From Flavobacteriaceae bacterium (GTDB lineage Bacteria > Bacteroidota > Bacteroidia > Flavobacteriales > Flavobacteriaceae), in the NCBI GenBank assembly GCA_965224465.1, contig OZ245049.1:720001-752000 (forward strand): DNA of 32,000 nucleotides. Direction: 5' to 3'. The position numbers were made by a program, and so were the translations under genes. Shown here in pieces: positions 3,468 to 31,901 of the stretch. The stretch's first letter is position 1, and each line of letters begins with the position of its first letter. The notes beneath the pieces were generated by a model. That model saw nothing but the letters and a program-made list of their open reading frames with translations, searched no databases and was not told where the DNA came from.

Positions 3468-4138
3468 TATTCTACTTTAAATCGTAATGTAATTCCTTTG
3501 TTGTTAGCTAAATTAATGTAGTCTTGAATATTACTTAAACTTTGATTAGTAGCAGGAATCTCTAAATACATTTGACCTTGTAAAATTTGACCATCAAGTA
3601 ATGGACTATACTTAGGCGAATTAATTGCTGTCCCTGGACTGTATTTAACTAACATTTCATCAAGATAACTCTCAAAAGTCGAAAGTTGTATATCCCCCAA
3701 ATTAGTTGCTTTTCTTGAAATAATTTCACCTGGATTACCATTAGCAGGTGGTTTATAAGAATCTAATCGTTTTCCATTACCCAAATGAACTTCATTGTAT
3801 GGATACCAATCATTATCAACTGCTTTTTTATTGAATGTGTTACCTCTTGCGAGCGGTGAATCAAATAACCAATAATCTCTTACCTCTTTCCATTCTAATC
3901 TTGGTCTTGGTGTTTTACCTGCATTTGTTTTTCGAGTAACGTACTTTAAATAATCTACTTCAAGTATGTTGTCAATGAATTTACCTGAGCCATTTAACAA
4001 TTCACTCCCTGCATTAGCCAAATCTTCAACACTAGCACTACTTTTTTCAATTGAAAAAAAAGTATCGTTTGCACTTAAATTAAAGCTTGTAAAAAAGCTT
4101 AGTGCAACTATTAAGAATATTTTAAAATGACTATTCAC
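3467..4138 (-). CDS. Displaced polymorphic-toxin C-terminal module (unassigned family, variant a) fused to a signal-peptide-like leader
   Basis: GTG start. The leader MNSHFKIFLIVALSFFTSFNLSA|ND is followed by FFSIEKSSASVEDLAN and then a ~175-aa domain. It shares the LAN junction 9-mer with the large toxin gene. A possible PD-(D/E)xK-like signature (RLDS...GEIISRK) is only a guess. Confidence 0.6.
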   Translation of the reverse strand: MNSHFKIFLIVALSFFTSFNLSANDTFFSIEKSSASVEDLANAGSELLNGSGKFIDNILEVDYLKYVTRKTNAGKTPRPRLEWKEVRDYWLFDSPLARGNTFNKKAVDNDWYPYNEVHLGNGKRLDSYKPPANGNPGEIISRKATNLGDIQLSTFESYLDEMLVKYSPGTAINSPKYSPLLDGQILQGQMYLEIPATNQSLSNIQDYINLANNKGITLRFKVE

Positions 4139-10227: not shown

Positions 10228-10563
10228 ATGAATATTGGAAGTAAAATAATAGAACTTAGGAAAGCAAAAAACTGGTCTCAAGCAGAACTTGCTGAAAATA
10301 TAAGCGTGTCTCGTGTGATTATTGGAAAGTATGAACGCAATGACGCATCCCCATCAATTGACATTGCAAAAAAGATGGCTGACGCTTTTGGGGTTAGTTT
10401 AGATTTTTTAGTAGGTGAGGGTAAAAACGCACACTACAATAAAAAGACATTAAAAATTATTGAAGAAATTGAAGCCCTTGAACCAACTACTAAAGAAAAA
10501 CTATATTTCTTAGTAAATGCGGTTATTAGAGATTCTAAAACACAAAAGGCTTATGCAGGATGA
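10228..10563 (+). CDS. XRE/Cro-C1 family HTH transcriptional regulator
   Basis: Differs from 2674..3009 by one residue, plus a few 3'-terminal synonymous changes where the divergence island begins. Confidence 0.85.
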   Translation: MNIGSKIIELRKAKNWSQAELAENISVSRVIIGKYERNDASPSIDIAKKMADAFGVSLDFLVGEGKNAHYNKKTLKIIEEIEALEPTTKEKLYFLVNAVIRDSKTQKAYAG

Positions 10564-11021
10564 GAAAGTTTTAAAGCCTCTCTTTTCATATCTTCATATA
10601 AAGATAAGGCTTCTTTAAAAATTTCTTGAAGAGTCTCGTAATTATCAAATGAGGGATCTTTGATTAGTTCTTCTGACTTTATGTTTTTAGAATATTCAAT
10701 ATCTTCACATATAACACAAGAAGCCCCTCCTATAAATTTTTCTGATATATTGTTTTTACATCCTAAAATAATTTCTACTAAACCATATTTCAGACTAAAA
10801 TGAATATTAAATGTCCAATTATTTAACGAATCTACGATTTTGTAAAAATTACCTTTAGAAACATACTTTACCTTATAGTCTAACTTTTCTAAGATAGCTA
10901 AAACTTGTTTTTTATCTGTTTTTTCAAGCCTTCTTTCATTATTTCGTGTTTTATCACTCAAAGACTTGTATCGCTCATAAAAATTAATACTTTCAAATAT
11001 GTTAATCCCAAACTCTTCCAT
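10551..11021 (-). CDS. Putative immunity protein for the 223-aa toxin module (variant b)
   Basis: Same position and length as 2997..3467, but about 46 of 156 residues differ (by-eye count). Confidence 0.6.
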   Translation of the reverse strand: MEEFGINIFESINFYERYKSLSDKTRNNERRLEKTDKKQVLAILEKLDYKVKYVSKGNFYKIVDSLNNWTFNIHFSLKYGLVEIILGCKNNISEKFIGGASCVICEDIEYSKNIKSEELIKDPSFDNYETLQEIFKEALSLYEDMKREALKLSHPA

Positions 11022-11692
11022 TATTCTACTTTAAATCGTAATGTAATCCCTTTGTTATTAGCTAAATTAATATAGTCTTGAATATTGCTTAAACTTTGAT
11101 TTGTAGCTGGGATTTCTAAATACATTTGCCCTTGTAATATCTGACCATCAAGGGCTGGACTATATTTAGGCGAATTAATAGAAGTACCAGGACTATACTT
11201 AACTAACATTTCATCAAGGTAACTCTCAAAAGTCGAAAGTTGTATATCTCCTAAATTCGTTGCTTTTCTTGAAATAATCTCCCCTGGATTTCCATTTTTA
11301 GGTGGCTTATAAGAATCTAATCGCTTTCCATTACCCAAATGAACTTCATTATATGGATACCATTTATTATCAACAGCTGTCTTGTTAAAAGCATTACCTC
11401 TTGCGAGTGGTGAATCAAATAACCAATAATCTCTTACTTCTTTCCATTCTAATCTTGGTCTTGATGTTTTTCCTGCATTAGTTTTTCGAGTAACATACTT
11501 TAAATAATCTGCTTCAAGTATGTCGTCAATGAACTTTCCTGATGCATTTAATAAATCACTCCCTGCATTAGCCAAATCTTCAACACTAGCACTACTTTTT
11601 TCAATTGAAAAAAAAGTATCGTTTGCACTTAAATTAAAGCTTGTAAAAAAGCTTAGTGCAACTATTAAGAATATTTTAAAATGACTATTCAC
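11021..11692 (-). CDS. Displaced polymorphic-toxin C-terminal module (variant b) with a signal-peptide-like leader
   Basis: About 11 of 223 residues differ from 3467..4138. The leader and the LAN junction are identical. Confidence 0.6.
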   Translation of the reverse strand: MNSHFKIFLIVALSFFTSFNLSANDTFFSIEKSSASVEDLANAGSDLLNASGKFIDDILEADYLKYVTRKTNAGKTSRPRLEWKEVRDYWLFDSPLARGNAFNKTAVDNKWYPYNEVHLGNGKRLDSYKPPKNGNPGEIISRKATNLGDIQLSTFESYLDEMLVKYSPGTSINSPKYSPALDGQILQGQMYLEIPATNQSLSNIQDYINLANNKGITLRFKVE

Positions 11693-12229
11693 GTTCTCAA
11701 ATATACAATTTTGTTTTTTTCAACTGACAAAAAACACAAAATGATTTTCTACGTTTTTTCTTCAATTGAAAAAGAGGCGGCTGTAGCGTGGGTTTTCAAT
11801 TGAAGAAAAAATGATAGCTTTTTACGGCGATTGAGTAAAACAATTAAGATTCCTAGTGCGCTGGCAGTAGTGGTGGCAAAAGCGGTGGAATGTGGCTATT
11901 TTGCATAATACCAGTTATAACTACCTGTAGTTTTTCACGCAAGAGTATTATAACTTGTATTATGTAACTTAGCTTGGGGTGGTTTTTTTGGCGGAGTTTT
12001 TGCCTTTTAGCCGTGGCACAGCTCGTTGGATTTTCTTTTTTTCAATTGAAAATAAAAACTTAAAAAAGAAAATACAATGTGCTGTTTTTTTTAGCGTGGA
12101 TGCAAAAAATATGACCTAAAAATCACTAGGCAGTGGCGAGCGGAACAAAAGGAAATACAAAGGGTTTTTGCTTTTTCTGCAAAAATTTGGATTTGATTTT
12201 GTGGGGATTCGTGTGGTGGGATTTAATCG
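11693..12229. other. Conserved non-coding region of the unit (copy of 4139..4675)
   Basis: Identical to 4139..4675 at an offset of 7554. Confidence 0.5.
11904..11964. repeat. Copy of the 17-bp-arm inverted repeat
   Basis: Identical to 4350..4410. Confidence 0.7.
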
Positions 12230-13252: not shown

Positions 13253-13283
13253 AATTTTCAAAGTTAATTGTTTGGGTTGGATT

Positions 13284-14165: not shown

Positions 14166-14175
14166 CTTTATTTTA

Positions 14176-15030: not shown

Positions 15031-15130
15031 AGTTTTAATAATTGGATACCGAACCTTTCGACTTAGGGGGGTGCTGTGCATTTGGGGATTTTACTGGGTT
15101 ACCTCTGTAACTTATTGATAGTCGGTTAGT

Positions 15131-17857: not shown

Positions 17858-18196
17858 ATGACACTTGGCGAGAATATGGAAATAGTGAGAATGCAAAAGA
17901 AAATGTCACAAGCTGACTTAGCTAAACTTGCTGATGTGCATCAAAAAAACATTTCTAAGTATGAAAATGATGGCGTTATACCATCTGCTTTAGTTTTAAA
18001 AGAAATTGCTCGAGCTCTTGGGGTTACTACCGATTTTTTACTCGGTAGCCAAAGTGATACCGTAATTAAAGACGTGAAACTGCTAAACTTCTTTAAAGAA
18101 ATAGATAATATGCCTGACAACCTAAAAGGTTCTTTAGTACAGGTTATTGAAGCGTATGTACAGAATTATAAAGCTAAACAGGCTTATGCAGAATAA
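17858..18196 (+). CDS. XRE/Cro-C1 family HTH transcriptional regulator
   Basis: MSQADLAKLADVHQKNISKYENDGVIPSALVLKEIARALGVTTDFLLG. ATG start. Confidence 0.85.
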   Translation: MTLGENMEIVRMQKKMSQADLAKLADVHQKNISKYENDGVIPSALVLKEIARALGVTTDFLLGSQSDTVIKDVKLLNFFKEIDNMPDNLKGSLVQVIEAYVQNYKAKQAYAE

Positions 18197-18839
18197 ATTT
18201 TACACTTTAAAACCTGCAGTAGACACAAAAGAGACTGGAAATATTTTCCCTGCTGTAGAGAGTTATGAAGATTATGATTTTAACAGCTCTAATTCTGTAC
18301 ATAACTTAGATTCGGATAGCTTCCCTGATTTTACGCCTGATATTCGTCTTAAGCTTGCTAAAGGCGCAAAACTTTGTGACGTTATGGGACAAGGCACCAT
18401 TAGTGCTTGTGGATTATTGATAAGTCAAAATGTAAAAGATGTTTTTGAAAAATTTAACTTAATTCCACATAGGTATTTTGATGCAACTATTGAAGATAAA
18501 GGTGTAATTCATAAATACTATTGGGTACATTTTGTTTGGAAAGACGCGATAAATCATCTTAATTTTGAAAACAGTAAATTTCAAATTAATGAATTTGGCG
18601 ATAATCTTGGCGAGATAAAAATAAGAAATTATAAAGAACTACTTGAAAAGCAAACAGAATATGGATTTATGAAGACTATTTACAATTATGAAACAGAAAT
18701 GTTTACTGTAAATTCTAATTTATTTATTCACCCATTAAACAAAACGATTTATGTATCAGAGAAAATTTATAATTCTTTTTTACATAAATCGCTTAAAGGA
18801 ATTGATTTGTCACTAGCCCCAAATTTATTAATGAGGTAA
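18186..18839 (+). CDS. Putative immunity protein for the AHH nuclease module (possibly DUF1629/Imm11-like)
   Basis: Its 3' end overlaps the 3' end of the AHH toxin module by 12 nt in convergent orientation. The ATG at 18186 overlaps the XRE stop by 11 nt; the ORF-track start at 18147 is a TTG. The family guess comes from remembered sequence patterns (LLISQNVKDVFEKFNL, IYVSEKIYNSF...LKGI). Confidence 0.5.
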   Translation: MQNKFYTLKPAVDTKETGNIFPAVESYEDYDFNSSNSVHNLDSDSFPDFTPDIRLKLAKGAKLCDVMGQGTISACGLLISQNVKDVFEKFNLIPHRYFDATIEDKGVIHKYYWVHFVWKDAINHLNFENSKFQINEFGDNLGEIKIRNYKELLEKQTEYGFMKTIYNYETEMFTVNSNLFIHPLNKTIYVSEKIYNSFLHKSLKGIDLSLAPNLLMR

Positions 18840-19700
18840 GTTTAAATCTAAAAGATTTATTCTACCTGATGTTGCATTTATCTTATTTTCCAAAGAATTA
18901 GATAATCCTTCTATATATTGTTTCGTCAACTGAGGGTTTAAGTTTTTGTTTTTTACTCCATTGACTACTTGTTCACCCCACCAATTCAAATGTTCTCCTA
19001 TTTGATTTGTATAACTTGGATGTGGTCCGTGCTTCCCTAACCTTGTAGCTTTAGAATATTTATCTAATCCCATACCATTAGTAACCCCATTAAAGTCAAA
19101 ACCTCCTTCAACTGCTTTTTTAACAGTTGCGTTTTCTTTCAATAATTGAACAGGAAATAAATGATGAGCCTCTTGTCCTGACTGTATTCCTGATATTGTA
19201 CCTCTTAAATCACCTCTATGTTTAATAGTGTTTTTTACAATTTTAGAGCCATAAGATGACACATCTTCAACAAATCCAATACTACCATCTGCATTTTTCA
19301 CAAAACCACCTCCGATAATTGTTTCACCTGAACTGGTTTTAACTGAAGTCATTCCTGTAATAGGTGTAGTATTATTTCCTGTTGCTTTAAAAAAGTCATC
19401 TGATATTTCTAAAATCTCATCCGAACCATTTTTAACCACTCTTGCTATCTCATCACCATTTTGTGCTGTGATTTTTACAACATCATCTATTTTGTTGTAA
19501 TTTAAACCTAAATGAGCCCAATCATCAAACTTACTTGCAAGCTTTGGAAATATAGAAGCAATATCACCCACCGTATTAGCCAATTCTTCAAGCCTTTCAC
19601 TACTTTTTTCAATTGAAAAAAAAGTGTCGTTTGCACTTAAATTGAGTGTCGAAAAAACACTAAGTACAACAATTAGGAATATTTTAAATAAGCTGTTCAC
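18828..19700 (-). CDS. Displaced AHH-family (HNH/EndoVII) nuclease toxin module fused to a signal-peptide-like leader
   Basis: 18828..19583 is identical to 26418..27173. AHH motif GQEAHHLFP at 19161..19169. Leader MNSLFKIFLIVVLSVFSTLNLSA|ND with FFSIEKSS. GTG start. Confidence 0.7.
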   Translation of the reverse strand: MNSLFKIFLIVVLSVFSTLNLSANDTFFSIEKSSERLEELANTVGDIASIFPKLASKFDDWAHLGLNYNKIDDVVKITAQNGDEIARVVKNGSDEILEISDDFFKATGNNTTPITGMTSVKTSSGETIIGGGFVKNADGSIGFVEDVSSYGSKIVKNTIKHRGDLRGTISGIQSGQEAHHLFPVQLLKENATVKKAVEGGFDFNGVTNGMGLDKYSKATRLGKHGPHPSYTNQIGEHLNWWGEQVVNGVKNKNLNPQLTKQYIEGLSNSLENKINATSGRINLLDLNLPH

Positions 19701-20301
19701 GGATTACAAAGATAGTTGATTTCTTAGTTTTTGTTTTTCTTCAATTGAAAAAAAAATAAACACAAAGTTTAAGGCTTGATTTTTTGTAATTAATGCCTTA
19801 TCGAAATTTTCATTTTTTAGAATAATGCTCTATGGCATTGATTATAAAAAATGAGCATCCAAGGGGTTTGGGGAATGGAAGATTCCCCATATAAATAAAT
19901 CCTGCGTAGCAGACCTATTATTTTTTTTGTGCGGTTGGGAGCGTTGGATGTGTGGCTATTTTGCATAATACCAGTTATAACGACCTTTTTTTTCAATTGA
20001 AAATCAATTAATAAAGTCAAAAAAATGTGCGTAGCGAACTTATAACTTGTATTATGTAACTTAGCTTGGGGTTTAATTTTTTGGCATTGCTTTTTGTTCT
20101 GTGCGTTGGAGTAGCTTTTTGGTTTTGGCTTTTTTATTTTTAAAAAAACAAAAACAAAGTGCTACTTGTGGGATGGCTCACAAAAACTATGACAAAAAAT
20201 TAAACAGAAGGGATGGCGTGCGGAACAATATAAAACACAAAGGCTTTTTGCTTTTTCTGCAAAAAATTGGGTTTTATGTTGTGGGGATTTGTGCGGTGGA
20301 T
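19701..20301. other. Conserved non-coding region of the unit (D-type variant)
   Basis: Shares with 4139..4675 the hairpin arms, the TTCAATTGAA motifs and the block adjacent to the cargo stop codon. The ORFs listed here (19817..20020, 20101..20334) look spurious. Confidence 0.45.
19964..20056. repeat. The same 17-bp arms around a different, 59-nt spacer that contains TTCAATTGAA
   Basis: Arms at 19964..19980 and 20040..20056 are identical to those at 4350..4410. The spacer is unrelated. Confidence 0.7.
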
Positions 20302-20556
20302 TTAATAATGATATCTACATCCAATGATTTCTAATTCATCATTTTTAAACGAATATACAAGTCTGTGTTCTCCATCTATTCGCCTTGACCAATACCCTTG
20401 TAAATCGTGTTTTAATGGTTCTGGATTACCAATTCCATCAAAAGGATCTCTAAGTGTTGATTTTATTAATTCGTTAATTCTTTTTAGTTTCTTCTTGTCG
20501 GTAGATTGCCAATGAATATAATCTTTCCAAGCGGTGTTAGTCCAAGTTATTCTCAT
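20302..20556 (-). CDS. yoeB: YoeB/Txe-family type II toxin (RelE superfamily mRNA interferase)
   Basis: WTNTAWKDYIHWQSTDKKKLKRINELI...DPFDGIGNPEPLKHDLQGYWSRRIDGEHRLVY...IIGCRYHY. Overlaps the upstream antitoxin gene by 4 nt. Confidence 0.9.
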   Translation of the reverse strand: MRITWTNTAWKDYIHWQSTDKKKLKRINELIKSTLRDPFDGIGNPEPLKHDLQGYWSRRIDGEHRLVYSFKNDELEIIGCRYHY

Positions 20557-20804
20557 TCTTCAATTAAATTATGCACCTCTGATTTTCCTCTTTTAGATTC
20601 TTTTATTGACTGCATCAAAACATCTCTATTTTTACCTGATAATAAATAACTCGTTTCTTTTAATGAATTGTACTCATCTAAAGGGATTAAAACCAAGTCT
20701 TTATTATCTTTTCTCTTAATAATCAATTCTTCAACATCATTAATAACTAAATCCATCCATTTTTTTAAATTGACTCTTAAGTCTGTATAGTTTACCACTC
20801 TCAT
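20553..20804 (-). CDS. yefM: Phd/YefM-family type II antitoxin
   Basis: MRVVNYTDLRVNLKKWMDLVINDVEELIIKRKDNKDLVLIPLDEYNSLKETSYLL. Lies upstream of yoeB. A -7 box TATATTTG on the minus strand (20819..20826) lies 14 nt before the ATG. Confidence 0.88.
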   Translation of the reverse strand: MRVVNYTDLRVNLKKWMDLVINDVEELIIKRKDNKDLVLIPLDEYNSLKETSYLLSGKNRDVLMQSIKESKRGKSEVHNLIEE

Positions 20805-20864: not shown

Positions 20865-21746
20865 TTATCCCAATGGATGAAACATTTCTATTTGTTTACT
20901 CAAATTCTTCATATCCTTATTGCGGTACTTTTCAATATTTCCAACATCTTTATAACCTGCTAAATACTGAGCTTTTCTAAGTCCGTATAAATCAATCCAA
21001 ATGCCTATTCTTGATTGTTTGAGTTGGGTTAATCTTTTGATATTTATTTCTTGATTTTGTTCCTTTATAGTTCTTACCAATACTTTTAACTGGTCGTGAA
21101 CTCTCTGTTCTTTGTTGCAATTTGGACTAAACAAACGTTCACTTGATTCATTACTTTTTATTCCGTTTCTTCCAATTCCTCTAAAGTTTGTAATGTAATC
21201 GTGAAAAGGTATAATCTGATTGGCTTCTAGTTTTACTACTCTACTGTTTTTTCTTCTTACTCCTCCAGGTACTTTTATTATTCCTTTTTTTAGATCTAAA
21301 TCTGTTACTTCCAAATTCATTAAATCTTGTTTATCCAATGCCTGAAAAAGCATTAATCCCAACATTAATTTGTTACTGTATTTAAAATATCCGTGCTTAG
21401 TTTTGTTCTCATAATTAGTATAAATCGAGTTTAACTCGTCTTCTGTTAGTAGTAGTATTTGTTCTTGAGTTATTCCTTTAATCCTTACGTTTAATGCTAT
21501 GTTGTCTATTTTTAAAAAATGGTAATAATGTTCTATGGTTCTTAAAGTTGTATTGATGCTGGTCTTTGATTTTTCTTGTTCTTGAAGATGCCCTATGTAG
21601 TTTAATAATTGATTGTACTTTACTGTTTTGAATTTCAGCTTATTGCCTTTTAACCAAGTTGTAAATAGTCCAATTCTCATTATAAAATCTTTGATACACT
21701 TCTCGCTGTAATACCTTTCTATCAACCATTTTCTAAACTCTGTCAT
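20865..21746 (-). CDS. Tyrosine-recombinase-like protein with a degenerate catalytic set
   Basis: Identical to 13284..14165 except for the 3' end (LRKAQYLAGYKDVG...HPLG). Start set at the ATG at 21746. Confidence 0.6.
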   Translation of the reverse strand: MTEFRKWLIERYYSEKCIKDFIMRIGLFTTWLKGNKLKFKTVKYNQLLNYIGHLQEQEKSKTSINTTLRTIEHYYHFLKIDNIALNVRIKGITQEQILLLTEDELNSIYTNYENKTKHGYFKYSNKLMLGLMLFQALDKQDLMNLEVTDLDLKKGIIKVPGGVRRKNSRVVKLEANQIIPFHDYITNFRGIGRNGIKSNESSERLFSPNCNKEQRVHDQLKVLVRTIKEQNQEINIKRLTQLKQSRIGIWIDLYGLRKAQYLAGYKDVGNIEKYRNKDMKNLSKQIEMFHPLG

Positions 21747-21756
21747 CTTTATTTTA

Positions 21757-22611
21757 TTAGCTACCTGCCTCAGAATCTTCACTTATACGAACATATATTT
21801 GTGTGCTATCCAATCGTTTATGACCTAAAAAATCACCAATATATTCCAGTTCCATTCCTTGCTGTAAAAGATGAGTCGCAATGCTATGTCTAAGGCTGTG
21901 CAAAGTGGCTTGTTTTGTTATTCCTGCTTTTGATTGTAGTTTTTTTAACCTACTATTTAAATATTGTCCTGTTACTTGTGGTTTTGATTTTCCTACTAAT
22001 AAATACTTACTTTTCGAGTTGATTATCTCCCTTGAAAATTCAATGTATTCTTTTAAATCTGCTATTACTTTTTGACTCATTGGAACATATCTACTTTGAT
22101 AGTTTTTACTTGGTTTTATATAAATTAATCCTTTGTTAAAGTCGAGTTCTTTTGGTTCTAAATGAATGCCTTCTTTACTTCTTAATCCACAACCATAATA
22201 AATACTTAGCATTGCTTTATCCATTAATCCCAAAGGTTTATTTTCATCAATTGAAGAAAAAAGTTGTTTAATTTCTTCTTGACTAAAAATTATTCTTTCT
22301 GTTTTGATTTCTCTTTCTACTATGATTTTACCTGTTACTAATTTTTGCTTTTTAGTTAATTCTAAAAAGGCACTATATCTATTGATTACATTGATGTAAC
22401 CTTGTATTGATTGTCTTGCTAATTTGGTTTGATGCAAGCCTTTTATAAACTCTTCTATCTCTTGTTGATTAGGCGGTGAGCCACCGCAGGCAGTTTTTAG
22501 GTATTTAAAAAAAACAGCTAATAACCTTACATATCCTTTAATCGTACTTTCTGCATAACCTAATCTTACTAACCAATTTTCAAAGTTTTCTAATTCTTCT
22601 TTTACGTTCAT
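21757..22611 (-). CDS. Tyrosine recombinase / integrase (canonical catalytic residues)
   Basis: Identical to 14176..15030 at an offset of 7581. Confidence 0.85.
   Translation of the reverse strand: MNVKEELENFENWLVRLGYAESTIKGYVRLLAVFFKYLKTACGGSPPNQQEIEEFIKGLHQTKLARQSIQGYINVINRYSAFLELTKKQKLVTGKIIVEREIKTERIIFSQEEIKQLFSSIDENKPLGLMDKAMLSIYYGCGLRSKEGIHLEPKELDFNKGLIYIKPSKNYQSRYVPMSQKVIADLKEYIEFSREIINSKSKYLLVGKSKPQVTGQYLNSRLKKLQSKAGITKQATLHSLRHSIATHLLQQGMELEYIGDFLGHKRLDSTQIYVRISEDSEAGS
22473..22492. repeat. The same 20-nt element (unit D recombinase)
   Basis: Offset of 7581 from 14892. Confidence 0.75.
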
Positions 22612-22711
22612 AGTTTTAATAATTGGATACCGAACCTTTCGACTTAGGGGGGTGCTGTGCATTTGGGGATTTTACTGGGTTACCTCTGTAACTTATTGAT
22701 AGTCGGTTAGT

Positions 22712-25282
22712 TTAGTTGCCCACTAACTCAGCTGGGCTACTGTGGTTTACTGGTTCACTCATTGTTGCTTTTATATCTTCCAAAGCCTTGTCTAATGCTG
22801 TTTCTATACTGTTTTTTAAGTTTTCGTATTCTTCCATATTCAGTAATTCATATTCGTAACCTCTTGCTCTATTCCCTCCAATTACACTTAAATATCCGTA
22901 TCTATTCAAATCTGATAAGTGCCTATTTAATGTGGTTGGTGCAAAACGATATGTTTTTCTGATTTCTTTGCTGTAAAAACTCTTTTTTTGATGTTTGGAT
23001 AGATAAGTTTTAAGCAGCTCTAAAAAATCCCTACACGCTTTTGTTAGTTCATCACTCTTTGCCAGCAATACAGTTTTTAGTAATTTATTGGCTTCTTCAA
23101 TATCTTCTAAAGTAGTTTCTATGTAGTAGTTTCCTTGTTCGTCTTTTTTACGCTCTCTTTGATATTGATGATAAAATGTAACTGTTTCAATGAATGATAA
23201 ATAATGTGTATTGGTTCTTAATGGTTTAAAAACTGTTTCGGGAATATTTAGCTTTGTTGCATAGGGATTTACAACTTTTACTTTCTCTAATAACCATTGT
23301 ACATCTTTCAAAAATTCCCTGGCATTATTTTCTTCTTTCTTGTTGATTTTTCCTGCTGAACTATTTTGTTGATAGCTCATAATGCCCTCTTTTTGTTGTT
23401 TGCTGTTGTCTAAATAAATGAGTAAACTTCTATTGGCATTATCTTCATAAATCTTTTCTTTGGTGGTTGTTCCGGCTAAACAAATTGGGCCTTCTACTGT
23501 TAAGGTGATTGTCTTTAGATTTCCTTTAGCATCTTTTATTGGGATTGTTTTACTTATTTTTCGTTTACTCATTAACTCACGAATAGCATACAGAATCTTA
23601 TCATCTTGTGCTCCGTCTAAATCTTCAATTAGTATGAGTTTGTTTTTAAGTTCTGTTCTGTCAAAATAGTAAAGTGCATTTTCTGATAATGCGGTGATTT
23701 CTAATTTATGTTCTTCCGGTATTAACTCACTTATTTTTTCTTGTAAATAGGTTTTTCCTGTTCCACTTGCTCCTAAACTTATGATGTGTAATGGTTGTTC
23801 TCTTAATCTACTTGTAAAAACCAAATACATTAATAAACGGTTATTTTCTTCTCCAACCATTCCAGTTTTACCGATAAGCTCATTTGTCTTTTGGAGTAGA
23901 CTTTCTCCTTTTAAAAACTCAATTACTTTTTGTTTTCTTAGCTCGGTGAGTTCTCTTTGTTTCTTCTTTTGTGGTTTCTGTGAGTCAACTTGTCTTAATC
24001 TGTAATCTTCTAATCCGTTTATTAATTCTGCTATTGCGTATTGTATTTCACGTGTACCTAATTCTAATCTTTCGGCTACTTTTCTTATAAATTTCTCTGT
24101 TGCATCATCATTGTACAGGTCTAAATTACTTTGTCTGATGTTGTAAATAGGGCTTGGATTGTCGGTTCTTGTTATTCTTAAAGTAACTTTTAATTTATCT
24201 AAACTGAATAGGTTTATACCGCCTAAAACAGCTATTAGAATGTTGTTATTTTGGTAAGTTATGTATTCTGAGTTTTCTGTATTTAAGCGGTGAGCCACCG
24301 CAGGCAATTCTTTTTCCTCTTGTATAAATTCAGTTTCTGAGCCGTATAAATTTACTCTTTCGCTTATTAAATGCTCTAAAATACTTGGTTCGTGAGATTG
24401 TACCAAGCTGTTTACATCTTCTCCTTCCGGACAATTAATTTTACTTATGCTTAGATTATTGAAGAGTTGATTTAATTCTTTGGAATATTTATCCGTGGCA
24501 TTGCCACCTGCTTCATCCCCATCAAAAAATAGGATTACTTCTTTTAAATTTTCTAACTTTAATAATACCTGTTTGTGTTCTTCAGTAAATCCGTTTGTTC
24601 CATAAAGTGCAAGTGTTTCAAAATTGGTGTATTTCTGAAGTGTGGCACTATCAATTATGCTTTCTGTTAATATGATTACTTGCGTTTCTTTGCTTGGATA
24701 TTTTGGATAAAGTCCTTTTCTATTAGTTGTGTAATAATGTGTTCCTGTTTTCCCAATGTTACGACCATAGAAACTAACAATTTCACCTTCTTGGTTTTTC
24801 AATGGGTATATAATGCAATTATTCATTCCTTTAAATAATTGGGTGCCACCCTGTGGCTTATAGCCTTGTTCTAATTTTACATCATAAATTCCTCTTTCTT
24901 CTAAATAGGTTATTGCTTTTTTACTTCTGTGTAGGCTTTGTTTGAATTTTGGGAACAACTCTTTAAAGTTTATAATTTCAGTTTCTTCAAGTTTAGTATT
25001 CATAATTTTTAATTCATCATTCGTAATTCCAATAAGGCTTTTCGCCTTATTGATAGCTTTATGCTTGGTACACTTTTCTATTTCTTGTATAAATTGTATC
25101 GTATCTCCTGTTTTATCGCAACCAAAACAAGTGTAGGTATTTGTCTCTGGGTAAATTCTTAAACTTGGTTTTTCATCTTTATGGAATGGGCATTTGCAAT
25201 GCTTGTTTTTATTCATTGCAATACTGTACTCGTTTAGTACTGTAACTATGCTTAATTGCTCTTTAATTTGCTTGATTTCCAT
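22712..25282 (-). CDS. DNA primase (CHC2 + TOPRIM) fused to a P-loop NTPase
   Basis: CPFHKDEKPSLRIYPETNTYTCFGC, ILTESIIDS, FFDGDEAG, GASGTGKT, LILIEDLDG. Confidence 0.85.
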   Translation of the reverse strand: MEIKQIKEQLSIVTVLNEYSIAMNKNKHCKCPFHKDEKPSLRIYPETNTYTCFGCDKTGDTIQFIQEIEKCTKHKAINKAKSLIGITNDELKIMNTKLEETEIINFKELFPKFKQSLHRSKKAITYLEERGIYDVKLEQGYKPQGGTQLFKGMNNCIIYPLKNQEGEIVSFYGRNIGKTGTHYYTTNRKGLYPKYPSKETQVIILTESIIDSATLQKYTNFETLALYGTNGFTEEHKQVLLKLENLKEVILFFDGDEAGGNATDKYSKELNQLFNNLSISKINCPEGEDVNSLVQSHEPSILEHLISERVNLYGSETEFIQEEKELPAVAHRLNTENSEYITYQNNNILIAVLGGINLFSLDKLKVTLRITRTDNPSPIYNIRQSNLDLYNDDATEKFIRKVAERLELGTREIQYAIAELINGLEDYRLRQVDSQKPQKKKQRELTELRKQKVIEFLKGESLLQKTNELIGKTGMVGEENNRLLMYLVFTSRLREQPLHIISLGASGTGKTYLQEKISELIPEEHKLEITALSENALYYFDRTELKNKLILIEDLDGAQDDKILYAIRELMSKRKISKTIPIKDAKGNLKTITLTVEGPICLAGTTTKEKIYEDNANRSLLIYLDNSKQQKEGIMSYQQNSSAGKINKKEENNAREFLKDVQWLLEKVKVVNPYATKLNIPETVFKPLRTNTHYLSFIETVTFYHQYQRERKKDEQGNYYIETTLEDIEEANKLLKTVLLAKSDELTKACRDFLELLKTYLSKHQKKSFYSKEIRKTYRFAPTTLNRHLSDLNRYGYLSVIGGNRARGYEYELLNMEEYENLKNSIETALDKALEDIKATMSEPVNHSSPAELVGN
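24287..24306. repeat. The same 20-nt element (unit D primase)
   Basis: Offset of 7581 from 16706. Confidence 0.75.
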
Positions 25283-25447: not shown

Positions 25448-25786
25448 ATGACACTTGGCGAGAATATGAAAATAGTGAGAATGCAAAAGAAAATGTCACA
25501 AGCTGACTTAGCTAAACTTGCTGATGTGCATCAAAAAAACATTTCTAAGTATGAAAATGATGGCGTTATACCATCTGCTTTAGTTTTAAAAGAAATTGCT
25601 CGAGCTCTTGGGGTTACTACCGATTTTTTACTCGGTAGCCAAAGTGATACCGTAATTAAAGACGTGAAACTGCTAAACTTCTTTAAAGAAATAGATAATA
25701 TGCCTGACAACCTAAAAGGTTCTTTAGTACAGGTTATTGAAGCGTATGTACAGAATTATAAAGCTAAACAGGCTTATGCAGAATAA
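25448..25786 (+). CDS. XRE/Cro-C1 family HTH transcriptional regulator
   Basis: Differs from 17858..18196 by one residue (K vs E at position 8). Confidence 0.85.
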   Translation: MTLGENMKIVRMQKKMSQADLAKLADVHQKNISKYENDGVIPSALVLKEIARALGVTTDFLLGSQSDTVIKDVKLLNFFKEIDNMPDNLKGSLVQVIEAYVQNYKAKQAYAE

Positions 25787-26429
25787 ATTTTACACTTTAA
25801 AACCTGCAGTAGACACAAAAGAGACTGGAAATATTTTCCCTGCTGTAGAGAGTTATGAAGATTATGATTTTAACAGCTCTAATTCTGTACATAACTTAGA
25901 TTCGGATAGCTTCCCTGATTTTACGCCTGATATTCGTCTTAAGCTTGCTAAAGGCGCAAAACTTTGTGACGTTATGGGACAAGGCACCATTAGTGCTTGT
26001 GGATTATTGATAAGTCAAAATGTAAAAGATGTTTTTGAAAAATTTAACTTAATTCCACATAGGTATTTTGATGCAACTATTGAAGATAAAGGTGTAATTC
26101 ATAAATACTATTGGGTACATTTTGTTTGGAAAGACGCGATAAATCATCTTAATTTTGAAAACAGTAAATTTCAAATTAATGAATTTGGCGATAATCTTGG
26201 CGAGATAAAAATAAGAAATTATAAAGAACTACTTGAAAAGCAAACAGAATATGGATTTATGAAGACTATTTACAATTATGAAACAGAAATGTTTACTGTA
26301 AATTCTAATTTATTTATTCACCCATTAAACAAAACGATTTATGTATCAGAGAAAATTTATAATTCTTTTTTACATAAATCGCTTAAAGGAATTGATTTGT
26401 CACTAGCCCCAAATTTATTAATGAGGTAA
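25776..26429 (+). CDS. Putative immunity protein for the AHH nuclease tip (possibly DUF1629/Imm11-like)
   Basis: Identical to 18186..18839. Converges on, and overlaps by 12 nt, the 3' end of the full-length toxin gene. Confidence 0.5.
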   Translation: MQNKFYTLKPAVDTKETGNIFPAVESYEDYDFNSSNSVHNLDSDSFPDFTPDIRLKLAKGAKLCDVMGQGTISACGLLISQNVKDVFEKFNLIPHRYFDATIEDKGVIHKYYWVHFVWKDAINHLNFENSKFQINEFGDNLGEIKIRNYKELLEKQTEYGFMKTIYNYETEMFTVNSNLFIHPLNKTIYVSEKIYNSFLHKSLKGIDLSLAPNLLMR

Positions 26430-29400
26430 GTTTAAATCTAAAAGATTTATTCTACCTGATGTTGCATTTATCTTATTTTCCAAAGAATTAGATAATCCTT
26501 CTATATATTGTTTCGTCAACTGAGGGTTTAAGTTTTTGTTTTTTACTCCATTGACTACTTGTTCACCCCACCAATTCAAATGTTCTCCTATTTGATTTGT
26601 ATAACTTGGATGTGGTCCGTGCTTCCCTAACCTTGTAGCTTTAGAATATTTATCTAATCCCATACCATTAGTAACCCCATTAAAGTCAAAACCTCCTTCA
26701 ACTGCTTTTTTAACAGTTGCGTTTTCTTTCAATAATTGAACAGGAAATAAATGATGAGCCTCTTGTCCTGACTGTATTCCTGATATTGTACCTCTTAAAT
26801 CACCTCTATGTTTAATAGTGTTTTTTACAATTTTAGAGCCATAAGATGACACATCTTCAACAAATCCAATACTACCATCTGCATTTTTCACAAAACCACC
26901 TCCGATAATTGTTTCACCTGAACTGGTTTTAACTGAAGTCATTCCTGTAATAGGTGTAGTATTATTTCCTGTTGCTTTAAAAAAGTCATCTGATATTTCT
27001 AAAATCTCATCCGAACCATTTTTAACCACTCTTGCTATCTCATCACCATTTTGTGCTGTGATTTTTACAACATCATCTATTTTGTTGTAATTTAAACCTA
27101 AATGAGCCCAATCATCAAACTTACTTGCAAGCTTTGGAAATATAGAAGCAATATCACCCACCGTATTAGCCAAAAGTCTTTGAGAAGTCTTTGAGATATC
27201 TTCAACTAATTCATCAGGTAGTTTTTCAGATGCAATCAAGGACTTATTAAATTCTAAAACATCATCTGCACTTCTTTTCAATGCTTTCCCTAATAAAGCG
27301 TCTCCACTTAATGATACTATTTCTAACACAAACAGATATGTCCGCATCTTTTTACACAAATCTGTGTCACAATCAGAATATTCTAAAGCAGTCCCTAAAG
27401 TCCCACTTGAAACTTCTACAGCTCCTACAAAAATTTTTAGTGTTTCTAATTTTTTTAGTGTCTTTAGATGCCTTAGGTGACGAAGTTTCGCCAAATTCCC
27501 AACTCCAGAAAGGGTTGAAATCACATCTATAGTTAAATAAATACCGTTTTCAACATTACTGGTATAATTTTTAGATGCAATAGCCTGTAATATGAATAAA
27601 GGTAAAACAGGAGATTTATCTGGGAAATTAAAATTAGTATCTATTTCTAGGTAATTAATTAAATTTACAGGTTGATAAATACCAAATTCACCTATAAGAC
27701 TTTCTGTTGTAAATTTATTTGGCATAGCTCCATACATGCCATTTGTTGCACTCCCAACATATTCAGTTTCATTCTTTATAACTTTTATCTGAGCCGCGTT
27801 CTCGTTTAAATACAACTTATAATCACTTGTATAAAATCCAACTAGTTTGGAACTTGTATATGGGATTACTTCAAGATTTTTTTCTAAATTATTTTTAACA
27901 TAATTAGACTCTTTCCAAATATAATACAATGTATGGATGTAAGTGGTGAAATTATCATCTCCTCCCCAATCATCTAACTTCTCAAATATTTTTCTATAAA
28001 CAGTTTTTCCTTCAATTTTTTCAGAAAACAACCCATCCAAAAATTTAGTTTCATCCTGTTTTCCAAGTCCTTCAATAATAGTTAACACTGCCTTTTCTTC
28101 GTTAACCAATCGCTCATCAACACCACAAATTAACAAGCCTTTTAATGCATTCCATAACTGTTTATTATTAAACGTATTGGCAATATGAAAATTTGGGATT
28201 TCTGCAAAGTACAAATCGATGTCCCCACAATCAGGTAAGTTATCTGTAATGTAAGGAAGGTATTTTTTATCTAACCAAGAAATAATATTCTTAGATACTT
28301 TTGTTCTTGAAATACTAGAACCAATAATTACTACTTTATCAAGGTCTATAATATTATCTTTTACATAATCCTCATATGTCATGTCGGAGGGAATACCTAA
28401 CATCTCCTTTGCATCCTCTTCTGTTGCAATATCTTCTTCCTCGATTTCGATATTATCTAAAGTAATATTATCACCATTTATCCCTAGTGTTTTACAAAAA
28501 TTTTCTATATCATCGTGATGGTCAAATTGAAATACAAATTTATTACCCAACCCATCGGATAATTCAAGTTTATAGAATATATCAAAAACATTGAACAGAA
28601 ATAAAAACCTACTCTTCTTTACTTTTAAAGACTCTGATTTATTATCTATACTAATTTGTGCTATATTTCCACTAGGTTGCTGGACAAGATTAAAATTTAA
28701 ACCTGTACTCTCAAATATATGATGATAATAACCACGAAGATTACATGGAATAGAACCATTTACTTTAGAAGAACTACATTTTTTAATTTGATCTTTCCAT
28801 TCTAGATTAGTTTTTTCTCCTGCATAAGTTTTTTTAATATGGTTCAGAATCCGATCCATTTGTTCCTTTTTATAAGAACTTGAAATACTTTCCCCTTCAC
28901 TATCCCCATCAAAAATCCCAATCCTCAATTTCGGATTGTGTATGGCTTTCCAATGTACATAAGGTAAATTCTCTCCATTATTATAATCTAGTAACCAATT
29001 GGTACTTCCTGTAGCATATTTATAACTATGCGTAGAGAATGGATGTTTTAGCTGGAATGCACCGTGGGCGAGTTCGTGTGCTACGGTTATCCCCCCAGCC
29101 CCCAAAGGGGGAGAATTTGCGGTAAAAATATAACCGAATTGTCTGCCTAGAGGCATTAAACCACTTTCTGTGTTGCTATTTCCGCTGGCATCCACAGGCT
29201 GTTTGTCTGTTAAGATTAAATAATAAGCTTCAGGGTTAAAGTTACCATGCTCTTTTAATGCCTTATTTATACTACGCTGTTGCTCTGTGTATTGCGCTGC
29301 AAAGCCACTTTCTCCACTTTTTATAGTGCCGTCTGGTGTTAGACTGTTTAGGGTCGCTGTAAAATCGTTAATTACAGAAATATTTAGGCTAACTGCTGCT

Positions 29401-31901
29401 TGTTGGTAAATAGCTTTTAGTTTTTTTGTAATGGCACTTGTATTCGCTTTTGAAGTATTTACCAATACTACGACCACTTCCTTTATGGCAATTTGGTATT
29501 GCATAAAAGCCCCTGCTATTTGGTATTTATCGCCTTGTTTTACTAAGGCTTGGGTTTCTATATCGGCATCGCTTAGCGTTCCTTTTAATTTCAACGTATA
29601 GGAAGTACTAGTACTATCTACTTTTTTCAGTCCTACACCATCTTTGGTTTTAAAAATAATGTCTTGAGGTTTTATACTATCGTTGGTTATTTTGAAATTG
29701 GCAACAATAAATTCTACCGTTCCTTTAGCTACCGCTTTGTAGGGCATGTAATAAGCTGACCCTAACTTTTTGTACAAGTCCTTGGTTTGTGGCTGGCTTG
29801 GGCTGTAGGCGTCGAATCCAGTGGGCAGTGTTGCAGTAGGCAGTTGGGTGAACGTTACGGTGACACCTTGTGCGGTGATGTTAGTGGCTTCTCCTTTGCT
29901 GTTTACGCCTGTGGTGTTTTCCACAGTGGTAGTACCGCCTTCGGCTTGTGGACCTAATTCGGTTACATTTCCTTGTTCGTCTACATGGTATTTTTTTGGT
30001 AGTACTGGTGGTTTTGCTTTGGAATCTCCGCTATCGGTTATTATATAGTCCTCTCCTCCAGACAATTCTACAATAGGTGCACCGCCTTTTCCTACTAATA
30101 ATATATCTCCGTTGCTTGGGTCTACTAGGATTTCTGCTATTTGGAAGTTGACTTCGCTGGTATTTACTTGTCCATCACCTCCATTAAATAGATCCCCTGT
30201 ACCCTTTACACTACTCCATGTAGGATCGTAGGTAGTTTTAACGACTCCTTCATACAATTCGTAATCCGTATTTATTTTAATTCCTTTAAACTCTACCGCT
30301 ATTTTGGTATCTGCTAAATAAGGAACTACAATATATCCCGTTCCAGAAAAAGTACCATTTCCTCCTTGTTTCTGTTTTACTGTCACAGGGAAATCTCCTG
30401 CCGTAAATGTTTCGTTCACGCCAATATTTGCCAATGGCTTAGTGTTGGTAATTTCAATTTCGGGGATAATACCACAGCTATAACTCACCGTTTCGTCCTT
30501 GGTAGGCATGGTAAACTGGTTTACATTGCTGTAAGTAAACGCTTGGTTTAAATCCGTTATCTCATGGCAAGTACCACCCACTCTAAAATCGTAGGTAACT
30601 CCTGCTTGTAAATTTGATACTTGGGCTTGGTTGTTATAAGAAAATATTTCGAACCATTCGGCATCGGCTACATCGGCACGTTTGTATTGTAAATGATACC
30701 TGTTGTGATCTGGATGTGTTTTCCAACTTATTTTCACACGCCCTGTATTTAGCGGTTCTGCCAAAGTCATGGTGGGTGGATAACACTGATTTGTATAGGT
30801 AAAATAAAATATTTCGCTATACCCATTGTTCTTAAAAACCGAGTTTTCGCTCAATCCTGTTGTAGATTTTGCGCGTACTCGCCAAGCATAGGTACGCCCT
30901 GGCATTAATGGAGGCTTGCTTATGTTGTACGATATGGTAGTGGAATAGGTAGTCTCCGAATGATAAGGAGGCGCTGCTAAAAATCCTGCTTGAGGATCTA
31001 TCTGCGTATCCCAAAGCTCACGCAGTTCAAACTCATAACTTACACCACTCGCATTGGCATGCCGTGGTGTCCATTGAAAAGTAATGTTGGTGGGTTGTAT
31101 ATTAGTCAATTGATCCCCTCGGTTGGGAATATTTAAAAAAGGAGGATCGTTTAACAGTAAAAAGATATTAGAACAGCCTCCCATTTTAGGATTGGAGATG
31201 CGTTGTCCTGATAAAAAATCGTAGACTTCCCAACATATTTTGTAGCGTCCATCAGGTAGTGGTCTGTTGTATTGTTGTGGACTAATGCCTATTAAATTAT
31301 GTAACTGAAAATAGGCTGCTAAATCTATGTTTGTAAATTGTTGTGTACTTTTCCCATTGAGGTAAATAAAAGGTGCTCCTTGTACAAAATTTACAGATTG
31401 TATATTGAGTCCCTGTCCTTGTATTTTTAATTTTAAGCGTATTTGACGGTTGCTAATATTGGCATCGTTCATGGTCAAATACAGCCGTAATTTTACAGCA
31501 GACGTTGTTGCATAACTGTTTAGTTTTGTGTTATAAGGGGGGACTATATTTTGACTTACTTGTACTGGGTGGAGTTGGGCCTGTGTAAGTTGGCAGGTTA
31601 GCAATAGGCAGAATGCAGTTAGCAGTTTTGCGGTGACAGTAGGCAGTTTTGCAGTTGGCAGTAGGCAGTTGAGCATCTTTGCGGTTAGAATAGGCAGTTG
31701 CTCTTTGTTGCGGTTATTTGCAGTAGGCGGAATGCAGTTGAGCAACTTTGCGGCAAAAGAAATTAAATATGTTGTACCATTTTTAAAGTTAGAATTTGGT
31801 TTTTTTTCACAACAGTGAGTACTGCCTACTGCCAATTTTAACCTCAACAATGCTCCTGCGTACTGCTTACTGAAAACTGCATACTCTATAAACTTTTTCA
31901 T
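26418..31901 (-). CDS. Large secreted polymorphic toxin with an internal HExxH zincin motif and a C-terminal AHH (HNH/EndoVII) nuclease module
   Basis: 5.5-kb ORF. A signal-peptide-like segment KLLTAFCLLLTCQLTQAQ follows an internal ATG at 31676, which may be the true start. Beta-rich, FN3-like segments are present (TNITFQWTPRH..., RVKISWKTHPDHNRYHLQYK...). HELAH lies at 29064..29078 and the AHH motif at 26751..26759. I saw no YD/Rhs repeats and no obvious T9SS C-terminal domain. Confidence 0.8.
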   Translation of the reverse strand: MKKFIEYAVFSKQYAGALLRLKLAVGSTHCCEKKPNSNFKNGTTYLISFAAKLLNCIPPTANNRNKEQLPILTAKMLNCLLPTAKLPTVTAKLLTAFCLLLTCQLTQAQLHPVQVSQNIVPPYNTKLNSYATTSAVKLRLYLTMNDANISNRQIRLKLKIQGQGLNIQSVNFVQGAPFIYLNGKSTQQFTNIDLAAYFQLHNLIGISPQQYNRPLPDGRYKICWEVYDFLSGQRISNPKMGGCSNIFLLLNDPPFLNIPNRGDQLTNIQPTNITFQWTPRHANASGVSYEFELRELWDTQIDPQAGFLAAPPYHSETTYSTTISYNISKPPLMPGRTYAWRVRAKSTTGLSENSVFKNNGYSEIFYFTYTNQCYPPTMTLAEPLNTGRVKISWKTHPDHNRYHLQYKRADVADAEWFEIFSYNNQAQVSNLQAGVTYDFRVGGTCHEITDLNQAFTYSNVNQFTMPTKDETVSYSCGIIPEIEITNTKPLANIGVNETFTAGDFPVTVKQKQGGNGTFSGTGYIVVPYLADTKIAVEFKGIKINTDYELYEGVVKTTYDPTWSSVKGTGDLFNGGDGQVNTSEVNFQIAEILVDPSNGDILLVGKGGAPIVELSGGEDYIITDSGDSKAKPPVLPKKYHVDEQGNVTELGPQAEGGTTTVENTTGVNSKGEATNITAQGVTVTFTQLPTATLPTGFDAYSPSQPQTKDLYKKLGSAYYMPYKAVAKGTVEFIVANFKITNDSIKPQDIIFKTKDGVGLKKVDSTSTSYTLKLKGTLSDADIETQALVKQGDKYQIAGAFMQYQIAIKEVVVVLVNTSKANTSAITKKLKAIYQQAAVSLNISVINDFTATLNSLTPDGTIKSGESGFAAQYTEQQRSINKALKEHGNFNPEAYYLILTDKQPVDASGNSNTESGLMPLGRQFGYIFTANSPPLGAGGITVAHELAHGAFQLKHPFSTHSYKYATGSTNWLLDYNNGENLPYVHWKAIHNPKLRIGIFDGDSEGESISSSYKKEQMDRILNHIKKTYAGEKTNLEWKDQIKKCSSSKVNGSIPCNLRGYYHHIFESTGLNFNLVQQPSGNIAQISIDNKSESLKVKKSRFLFLFNVFDIFYKLELSDGLGNKFVFQFDHHDDIENFCKTLGINGDNITLDNIEIEEEDIATEEDAKEMLGIPSDMTYEDYVKDNIIDLDKVVIIGSSISRTKVSKNIISWLDKKYLPYITDNLPDCGDIDLYFAEIPNFHIANTFNNKQLWNALKGLLICGVDERLVNEEKAVLTIIEGLGKQDETKFLDGLFSEKIEGKTVYRKIFEKLDDWGGDDNFTTYIHTLYYIWKESNYVKNNLEKNLEVIPYTSSKLVGFYTSDYKLYLNENAAQIKVIKNETEYVGSATNGMYGAMPNKFTTESLIGEFGIYQPVNLINYLEIDTNFNFPDKSPVLPLFILQAIASKNYTSNVENGIYLTIDVISTLSGVGNLAKLRHLRHLKTLKKLETLKIFVGAVEVSSGTLGTALEYSDCDTDLCKKMRTYLFVLEIVSLSGDALLGKALKRSADDVLEFNKSLIASEKLPDELVEDISKTSQRLLANTVGDIASIFPKLASKFDDWAHLGLNYNKIDDVVKITAQNGDEIARVVKNGSDEILEISDDFFKATGNNTTPITGMTSVKTSSGETIIGGGFVKNADGSIGFVEDVSSYGSKIVKNTIKHRGDLRGTISGIQSGQEAHHLFPVQLLKENATVKKAVEGGFDFNGVTNGMGLDKYSKATRLGKHGPHPSYTNQIGEHLNWWGEQVVNGVKNKNLNPQLTKQYIEGLSNSLENKINATSGRINLLDLNLPH
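31600..31884. repeat. Cluster of GC-rich GGCAGT/GCAGTT-type short repeats in both orientations at the 5' end of the toxin gene
   Basis: Imperfect repeats such as TAGGCAGAATGCAGTTAGCAGTTTTGCGG (31603..) and TAGGCGGAATGCAGTTGAGCAACTTTGCGG (31722..). Perfect 15-nt inverted pair at 31655..31669 and 31821..31835. Confidence 0.65.

Follow-up and report, generated by a model that had tools for sequence, protein, structure and literature searches.

A shared 8-bp core is very probably the crossover site of mobile elements that exchange toxin tips in Bacteroidota

How a large toxin gene comes by a new C-terminal toxin domain, in frame and at a precise point, is the question raised by a 32-kb stretch of a Flavobacteriaceae genome (contig OZ245049.1, positions 720,001 to 752,000; the whole 32,000-nt stretch is called the window below). 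The window carries a gene for a toxin of 1827 amino acids (aa), followed downstream on the same strand by at least 3.5 tandem units of 7.55-8.0 kb each, and the C-terminal part (tip) of this toxin, an AHH nuclease, recurs as a second copy inside the array. The original prediction placed the exchange of tips at a shared 9-mer, TTGGCTAAT, read as Leu-Ala-Asn (LAN). Our analysis makes it very likely that an 8-mer, TTGGCTAA, is the common crossover core, or attachment (att) core, of integrative, plasmid-like Bacteroidota elements of ~7-8 kb that swap toxin tips. The four junctions in the window and the parts that meet at them are as follows.

27165..27173, minus strand: junction J1 (attL-type), core TTGGCTAA plus T, Leu-Ala-Asn, boundary of carrier and AHH tip
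19575..19583, minus strand: junction J2, core, boundary of leader B and second AHH tip copy
11567..11575, minus strand: junction J3, core, boundary of leader A and 223-aa-type tip (allele b)
4013..4021, minus strand: junction J4, core, boundary of leader A and 223-aa-type tip (allele a)
26418-31901, minus strand: large toxin gene, 1827 aa, fn3-type domains and C-terminal AHH nuclease
27174..31901, minus strand: carrier part of the toxin gene, fn3-type domains, HExxH motif, conserved pre-toxin region
26418..27164, minus strand: AHH nuclease tip now fused to the carrier (Pfam AHH, E=7.8e-07)
18828..19574, minus strand: displaced AHH tip copy, 100% identical to 26418-27164
19584..19700, minus strand: leader B (unit 1), GTG start, signal-peptide-like N-terminus, end ...FFSIEKSSERLEE
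11576..11692, minus strand: leader A at the right end of unit 2, sequence ...FFSIEKSSASVED
4022..4138, minus strand: leader A at the right end of unit 3

The two AHH copies, taken with their cores (26418-27173 and 18828-19583), are identical at 756 of 756 positions; past TTGGCTAAT they share no further base, and the next 120 nt show 27% identity (ungapped), which bears out the abrupt end of identity predicted at 27173/19583. The 9-mer occurs four times in the window, always on the minus strand and always at a unit boundary, and nowhere else on either strand; all four coordinates predicted for it in the carrier, the displaced copy and the 223-aa modules match. Four copies compare with 0.56 expected, and 0 of 100 shuffled sequences reached four, the copies being not fully independent since the units are repeats. 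As a crossover core the 9-mer stood in part: comparative breakpoints place the exchange at this junction, but the core is the 8-mer, as the ninth base varies (T, C or G, giving Asn or Lys). The exchange is thus bounded to the 8-mer, because J1 and J2 differ at position -1 and the ninth base is free. At all four boundaries the short core lies in direct orientation at both ends of the units, and on the tip side it is followed by a semi-conserved G-rich stretch (nnnnGKRR). The leader proteins of the units end in a common pattern, ...NDTFFSIEKSS..VE[DE], and the leader B family is conserved in loci L001, L003, L006, L075-L091 and L095.

Related loci were compared next to the window. The primase encoded by the units belongs to a large family (2,156 matches at E<=1e-10 among 8,000 candidates scored, many on 6-8-kb contigs), and a scan of species-representative genomes gave 71 loci across Bacteroidota. 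Among 73 related loci, all retrieved via primase or leader and hence all occupied, a homologue of the first recombinase of the units (rec1) is found in 64, of the second (rec2) in 60 and a helix-turn-helix (HTH) gene in 65-70. Several loci repeat the full layout, from large toxin gene, tip and immunity gene through HTH gene, primase, rec1, rec2 and cargo to leader/tip, and carriers homologous to that of the window sit upstream of related elements in L006, L007, L013, L020, L026, L064 and L086. In L003 and L006, TTGGCTAAT follows the carrier as well as the leader downstream of it. In L003 one tip (LANGGSRFIAKS...) stands behind carrier and leader alike; L086 and the window, each with a tip of its own, show this arrangement too.

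A metagenome scan with a pattern of leader palindrome plus 8-mer gave 13 true leader junctions, most of them at contig ends, as is expected because assemblies break at a junction where one arm links to many alternative partners. The arms are reassorted combinatorially in these contigs. One leader, identical at 110/110 nt in L080, L086 and L091, precedes three unrelated tips (22/46 identity); two of those same tips also stand behind a second leader (L075, L077), and a third leader has two tips behind it (L081, L083). In all of them the switch from leader to tip falls at the edges of TTGGCTAA. Such combinations amount to a four-gamete-type result. Assembly chimeras were rejected as the source of the reassortment: assemblers work with k-mers far longer than the 8-mer, and the contig that holds the window measures 5.2 Mb.

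Whole segments are also bounded by the core. L086 and L077 are identical at 1379 of 1379 positions from one core through the next, a span covering tip, immunity gene and another leader of a longer type, and they drop to 36% identity on both outer sides; a core at either end thus delimits a discrete cassette of 1,371 nt. Internal mini-cassettes of 1.1-1.4 kb, each bounded by TTGGCTAA and composed of a tip, an immunity gene and a second leader of ~88 aa ending CNFSEGVVGG, lie at the positions below. Their layout is integron-like, and the window itself has no internal mini-cassette.

L086 (reverse complement) 4086-5457: mini-cassette
L091 (reverse complement) 114-2689: mini-cassette
L077 76-1447: mini-cassette

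Circular forms were found among the relatives. Three contigs from three samples (L096, L097, L098) are one 7,042-bp circle, differently permuted and 100% identical; their ends overlap by 520, 141 and 127 nt, and in this circle leader, core and an ART tip form a single open reading frame (ORF). L095 is a circle of 7,195 bp with a 30-nt overlap, which can be read as k-1 of a circular unitig if the assembly k was 31. It has a window-type leader (..NLSANDTFFSIENKGDRVCE), and its core variant TTGGTTAAT (also given as TTGGTTAA) and its tip share one 213-codon frame with that leader. The integration model calls for just such an attP arrangement, with leader, core and tip in one ORF on a circle; in an assembly, identical units in tandem could look like a circle of this kind. 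L052 (8,188 bp) is a further circle with the same backbone. Its start-less tip (~466-1239) begins with the end of an Rhs core domain (DYGARFYGPDGSRFF..NNPIRFIDYNG), which suggests that this lineage may target Rhs genes.

Each unit carries two overlapping recombinase genes.

21757..22662, minus strand: tyrosine recombinase rec1 of unit 1, XerC/D/XerA-like, Pfam Phage_integrase E=1e-37; copies 14176-15081 and 6587-7435
20865..21782, minus strand: second tyrosine recombinase rec2 of unit 1, divergent; copies 13284-14201 and 5730-6611

Aligned to the XerA structure 4a8e, rec1 has R, HxxR, H and Y in place (GLRSKE, HSLRHS, LGH...QIY); judged by this alignment, its XerA/XerD-type catalytic signature is complete. 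Core type and recombinase lineage go together. Wherever rec1 shares at least 73% identity with that of the window, the locus carries a TTGG[CT]TAA core and matches the window-type leader pattern; the exception is L004, where the sole core match is a false HTH hit, the window-type leader pattern is missing and the contig is probably truncated. Loci with rec1 at 35-54% identity have another core, GATTTGrTCGATAGTTGGAAG (read DLxDSWK), or an Rhs-core sequence. This second class comes with a distinct leader (..GVGQ[ST]FALEKE..GT) and with recombinases that share 38-40% identity with those of the window, and in L013 carrier and leader switch at the motif. From the sequences compared, core type follows recombinase lineage and not toxin family. 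The junctions of the second class are these.

L013 7835, 15214 and 15418: second junction class
L014 7808 and 10734: second junction class
L096-L098: second junction class

Behind a second-class core, L014 (9981-11534) has an AHH toxin 51% identical to that of the window, and the pairing with the 230-aa partner gene is kept there (58% identity); toxin/immunity pairs therefore move between adaptor and core classes. The G-rich tip-side arm (nnnnGKRR) is also kept in L007, L084 and L095, where the core differs, and the leader-side arm ends in a weak GTTGAAGAA-like consensus.

In the model we propose, an element brings along a toxin tip and its immunity gene, a regulator of the XRE type, a replication protein of the primase type, two tyrosine recombinases, variable cargo and a short leader. 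On the free circle, leader, core and tip would form one ORF (attP), and its partner in recombination would be the identical 8-mer that the large toxin gene carries in its 3' part (attB). Integration would fuse the carrier in frame to the incoming tip and leave the previous tip and its immunity gene fused to the leader of the element, which would keep displaced tip/immunity pairs expressed. Rec1 together with rec2 would catalyse the exchange, with cleavage and strand exchange at positions inside the 8-mer. Repeated integrations plus homologous recombination between copies would yield the tandem array of the window, and loss of the intervening units would be predicted to leave a carrier/223-tip deletion junction of the form ...CAAAGACTT TTGGCTAAT GCAGGGAGTGAT....

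The host-side arm of J1 has a peculiarity of its own, described by two features.

27174..27195, minus strand: perfect 11-nt tandem duplication, AAGTCTTTGAG twice (coding strand CTCAAAGACTT twice), abutting the core
27198..27206, minus strand: GTTGAAGAT (Val-Glu-Asp, VED) in the carrier, identical to the last 9 nt of leader A, probably a chance match

The 24 extra nucleotides (27174-27197) with their frame-changing 11-nt duplication had been predicted, and sequence, position and effect on the frame are as claimed. The duplication is the sole perfect tandem duplication with a 9-15 nt unit in the 32 kb and ends at core position -1. With one such repeat and four cores in 32 kb, its place beside a core is unlikely to be a coincidence. 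Read from the sequence, a one-copy carrier would give VEDISKTFG and then stop at a TAA inside the core; it therefore takes both copies to read on into the tip. The duplication reflects a genuine, separate mutation local to the host-side arm, and at present it sets the frame; tyrosine recombinases are not known to make target duplications. It is most simply explained as an indel selected for aligning the frames of carrier and core, and the earlier reading of a frame-restoring scar is consistent with both the frame arithmetic and the position. Another reading takes the repeat as a reversible on/off switch of the tip through slipped-strand mispairing, or as the footprint of an unrelated insertion, in place of a one-off scar. 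Loss of one copy would indeed bring the core TAA into frame, and the only such repeat of the window abuts the core exactly; yet there are two copies only, the five other carrier arms examined have no comparable repeat, and nothing in the sequence favours one direction of the event. We consider this reading unlikely.

The companion claim, that a VED/LAN motif had been split by the 24 nt, is not supported. GTTGAAGAT directly adjoins the core in both 223-aa modules, and it also occurs a second, independent time inside the AHH tip. The residues before the core in the five other carriers are unrelated (LLR, GNN, KRI, TKL, WRE), leaving VED without a counterpart in them. Over the last 30 codons of the carrier, the local alignment of carrier and leader DNA is within chance by shuffling (P=0.25 for leader A, 0.82 for leader B), and so is the protein alignment (P=0.28 and 0.10); the weak carrier-leader similarity noted upstream thereby falls away. 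An alternative pairing of ISKTSQRL with IEKSSERL of leader B was also rejected (P=0.10).

LAN had further been likened to the demarcation motifs VENN of CdiA and PxxxxDPxGL of Rhs proteins, and the same idea can be put as a rival to the att core: LAN(xG) would be mainly a protein-level demarcation or processing motif, with the DNA identity due to selection on the peptide or to recent descent. All tips of the LAN class do start LA[NK]-x-[GV], a weak EELA-like motif occurs in the distant homologues P0001 and P0006, and exchange in the second class likewise falls within a conserved peptide, DLxDSWK. Against this, unrelated tips and carriers all use the codons TTG GCT AA- and vary freely at the third position of Asn/Lys, the codons after the core are G-rich in genomes that are AT-rich, the same core lies in the L076 carrier, which has no detectable similarity to that of the window, and core type tracks recombinase lineage. 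Distant carrier homologues (~30% identity, with ART or MPTase4 tips, one of them from an element-free locus) remain conserved up to ...SLGxD..K.L..SA..AL and diverge ~30 residues before LAN, which they do not have; carrier homologues without elements lack it altogether. No VENN or DPxGL motif was found in the window carrier. We therefore give the protein-motif explanation little chance, and the demarcation claim is not upheld, LAN being missing from distant homologues and following the recombinase lineage. In the related elements, switches between leader or carrier and tip fall at the 8-mer; the distant homologues part ~30 residues earlier. On our reading LAN is the att sequence of one element lineage, read Leu-Ala-Asn/Lys, and any protein-level role would be an addition, not an alternative, to the att role. 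The carrier itself is found with alternative C-terminal domains (AHH in the window, ART and MPTase4 in homologues), and many tips stand behind the same core.

The units of the window are mosaics. Over positions 1-27173, 100%-identical blocks alternate with blocks of 75-90%, and unit 2 mixes unit-1-like and unit-3-like segments. Units 1 and 2 differ only at the primase N-terminus and the cargo/leader end, being 100% identical otherwise, and it is precisely in these two places that units 2 and 3 agree at 100%; the backbone of units 3 and 4 is 100% identical, with tip/immunity alleles at 68-96%. This pattern implies that the array was probably reshaped by homologous recombination or gene conversion between copies, or by module exchange. 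That ordinary homologous recombination drives the C-terminal displacement itself, as for Rhs and CdiA, with the LAN region no more than the end of carrier/orphan-module homology, is very improbable, even though such recombination is clearly active among the units and a full-length gene trailed by displaced tips and their immunity genes is typical of Rhs and CdiA loci. Carrier and leader arms have only 8-9 nt in common, as do unrelated tips, far below what RecA-type exchange requires; identity in the flanks is ~27-36% to either side, most loci have two tyrosine recombinases alongside the tips, and circles exist.

Several observations weigh against exchange at the 8-mer by element-borne recombinases. 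As the units are homologous-recombination mosaics, single junctions need not each record one integration. The first catalytic Arg of rec2 is not recognisable; by eye, rec2 also lacks the usual His residues and keeps one R and the C-terminal Y, and it may be a non-catalytic partner. The host-side arms of six carriers share no clear consensus or recombinase-binding half-site, and neither an inverted repeat nor a hairpin was found at J1, for which reason an attC-like single-strand site was rejected. The invariance of the 8-mer in the 13 metagenome junctions is by construction, the breakpoint positions alone being independent, and one of 32 pattern-defined junctions was a false HTH hit. Leaders found by protein similarity have core variants (ATCAATAA in L007, TTGGTTGA in L084, TTGGTTAA in L095). 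The circles come from relatives, and neither an excision product nor an empty site was seen for the window genome.

The gain of a new tip by a polymorphic toxin is usually credited to homologous recombination with orphan modules. Tips displaced along with immunity genes are known from Rhs and CdiA loci (Jackson 2009, as cited in PMC13183296). XerC/D genes were noted beside poly-immunity loci in the 2012 survey of polymorphic toxins (PMC3482391), and an Ornithobacterium paper treats a YhcG/two-recombinase transposon and Rhs orphan tips separately. No account of recombinase-mediated in-frame tip exchange was found in a full-text literature search or in PMC3482391, coverage being incomplete and prior work possible.

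The window resembles Rhs and CdiA loci in its conserved carrier with a variable C-terminal toxin, the adjacent putative immunity gene, the displaced tips downstream and the short motif at the swap point. It differs in exchange at an 8-bp core with unrelated flanks, in element-borne tyrosine recombinases and in a replicative circular form seen in relatives, and its displaced tips gain a leader (start codon and signal peptide) instead of remaining start-less fragments. Integrons likewise stack cassettes by a tyrosine recombinase at one site downstream of resident expression signals, and the relatives have non-autonomous mini-cassettes; here, however, insertion is in frame within an ORF, no attC-like hairpins were found and the recombinases ride on the mobile unit. 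The elements were not classed as integrons, rec1 scoring 113.6 bits on the integron-integrase profile (cut-off 265 bits) and J1 having no inverted repeat. Shufflons (Rci acting on PilV C-termini) also use a tyrosine recombinase to alter a C-terminal segment at short in-ORF repeats. They invert resident segments, whereas the exchange proposed for the window is integration and excision of mobile units; with all four cores direct and on the same strand, a shufflon was rejected too.

Elements that insert in the 3' end of a gene (tRNA-targeting phages, NBU-type elements, phage 21 and e14 in icd) carry a substitute 3' end at an identical core, and NBU-type elements of Bacteroidetes encode a primase. 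The window-type element also carries a substitute 3' end swapped at an identical core. In those elements the same function is restored, whereas here the substitute encodes a different toxin, so that integration would change the phenotype, and the old 3' end would stay expressible. A tRNA-type att site was rejected, as there are no tRNA genes and no Rfam matches in the window. Tn554-type elements have an adjacent pair of tyrosine recombinases (TnpA/TnpB), insert site-specifically without target duplication and pass through a circular intermediate. In these features the elements proposed here resemble Tn554, which differs in lacking a replication protein and in having a fixed chromosomal target unrelated to toxins.

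What is new here is plausibly a variant that combines integrative elements with polymorphic-toxin tip displacement, and a broader reading is plausible as well. In that broader reading, to which we give an even chance, Bacteroidota would have a two-tier, integron-like system of toxin diversification: autonomous integrative plasmids of ~7 kb (with primase and recombinase pair) and non-autonomous tip/immunity mini-cassettes of 1.1-1.4 kb would recombine at an in-frame core within toxin ORFs, recombinase lineages would have been retargeted to LAN-type carriers, DLxDSWK-type carriers or the end of the Rhs core domain, and the leader would keep displaced pairs expressed. The finding points to a dedicated, portable machine for site-specific, in-frame tip exchange at an 8-bp core, rather than an accident of ordinary recombination. 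If true, such a machine would account for tandem arrays of displaced tips and for recurrent breaks in metagenome assemblies, and it may offer a natural route to in-frame exchange of C-terminal cassettes. TTGGCTAA with the conserved leader could serve as a marker for such loci and for new toxin/immunity pairs, and the model is directly testable with defined substrates and the two recombinases, since both the circle and the fusion junctions are predictable.

In the direction of the toxin gene, each unit runs tip, putative immunity gene, XRE-type HTH gene, primase, rec1, rec2, cargo, non-coding DNA (~450-600 nt) and leader. The tip is AHH in units 1 and 2 and of the unassigned 223-aa type in units 3 and 4. 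The remaining genes and the repeat in the leader are listed here.

25737..26429, plus strand: putative AHH immunity gene, 230 aa, copy 18147-18839; weak Imm11 match (E=0.0015), under the curated cut-off
10551..11021, minus strand: putative immunity gene, 156 aa, copy 2997-3467; assigned by position, directly after the 223-aa tip ORF
22712..25282, minus strand: primase/replication protein of unit 1, CHC2 zinc finger and Toprim, C-terminal part with GASGTGKT P-loop motif
11596..11613, strand not applicable: 18-nt perfect palindrome TTTTTTCAATTGAAAAAA inside the leader, 22 nt upstream of the core; copies 19604-19621 and 4042-4059

The ORFs of the 156-aa gene and the 223-aa tip meet at 11021. A Pfam-type domain search of the window proteins gave no family match for the 156-aa protein, and an NCBIfam search gave no family for the carrier or the 223-aa tip. 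Further primase copies lie at 15131-17692 and 7542-10145, a fourth runs past the window start, and the proteins measure 853-867 aa; close relatives have a plasmid-Rep domain (PF27228) in the C-terminal part.

The slot that separates rec2 from the leader takes the cargo: unit 1 has a YefM/YoeB toxin-antitoxin pair there (20302-20804), and units 2-3 have a YhcG PD-(D/E)XK nuclease (12230-13261, 4676-5707); in relatives the slot holds an ORF6N-like gene or Gp49/HTH, or is empty. Each non-coding stretch (4207-4497, 11715-12056, 19734-20011) has 2-4 more related palindromes of 18-20 nt, variants of TTTTTTCAATTGAAAAAA, and the palindrome 12-mer occurs 6 times against 0.01 expected. The palindrome is missing from the carrier side of J1. 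This distribution suggests arms of a complex attP or accessory recombinase sites, HTH operators or a replication origin as candidate roles. A TAnnTTTG motif (TATCTTTG or TATATTTG) stands 5 nt upstream of the leader GTG (19701-19720, 11693-11712, 4139-4158) and also in L095. It resembles the Bacteroidetes -7 promoter element, and the leader mRNA may be nearly leaderless.

The HExxH motif of the carrier is HELAHGAFQLKHPF. The start of the large ORF as annotated is probably too far upstream, as a signal-peptide-like stretch (..LLTAFCLLLTCQLTQAQ) lies ~90-110 codons in (31500-31901). L092 (6263-15665) has a homologous toxin with neither element nor core, split into genes of 1185 and 752 aa and followed by several 185-aa genes, possibly an immunity array. 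Viral contigs scanned with the leader plus core pattern gave 0 matches. Some tips behind cores cannot be expressed: L001 has a stop codon 2 nt before the core (225-245), the tips of L006 (11503-11540) and L078 are truncated or frameshifted, and in L079 the leader is frameshifted and the tip interrupted by an in-frame stop. Displaced tips therefore decay.

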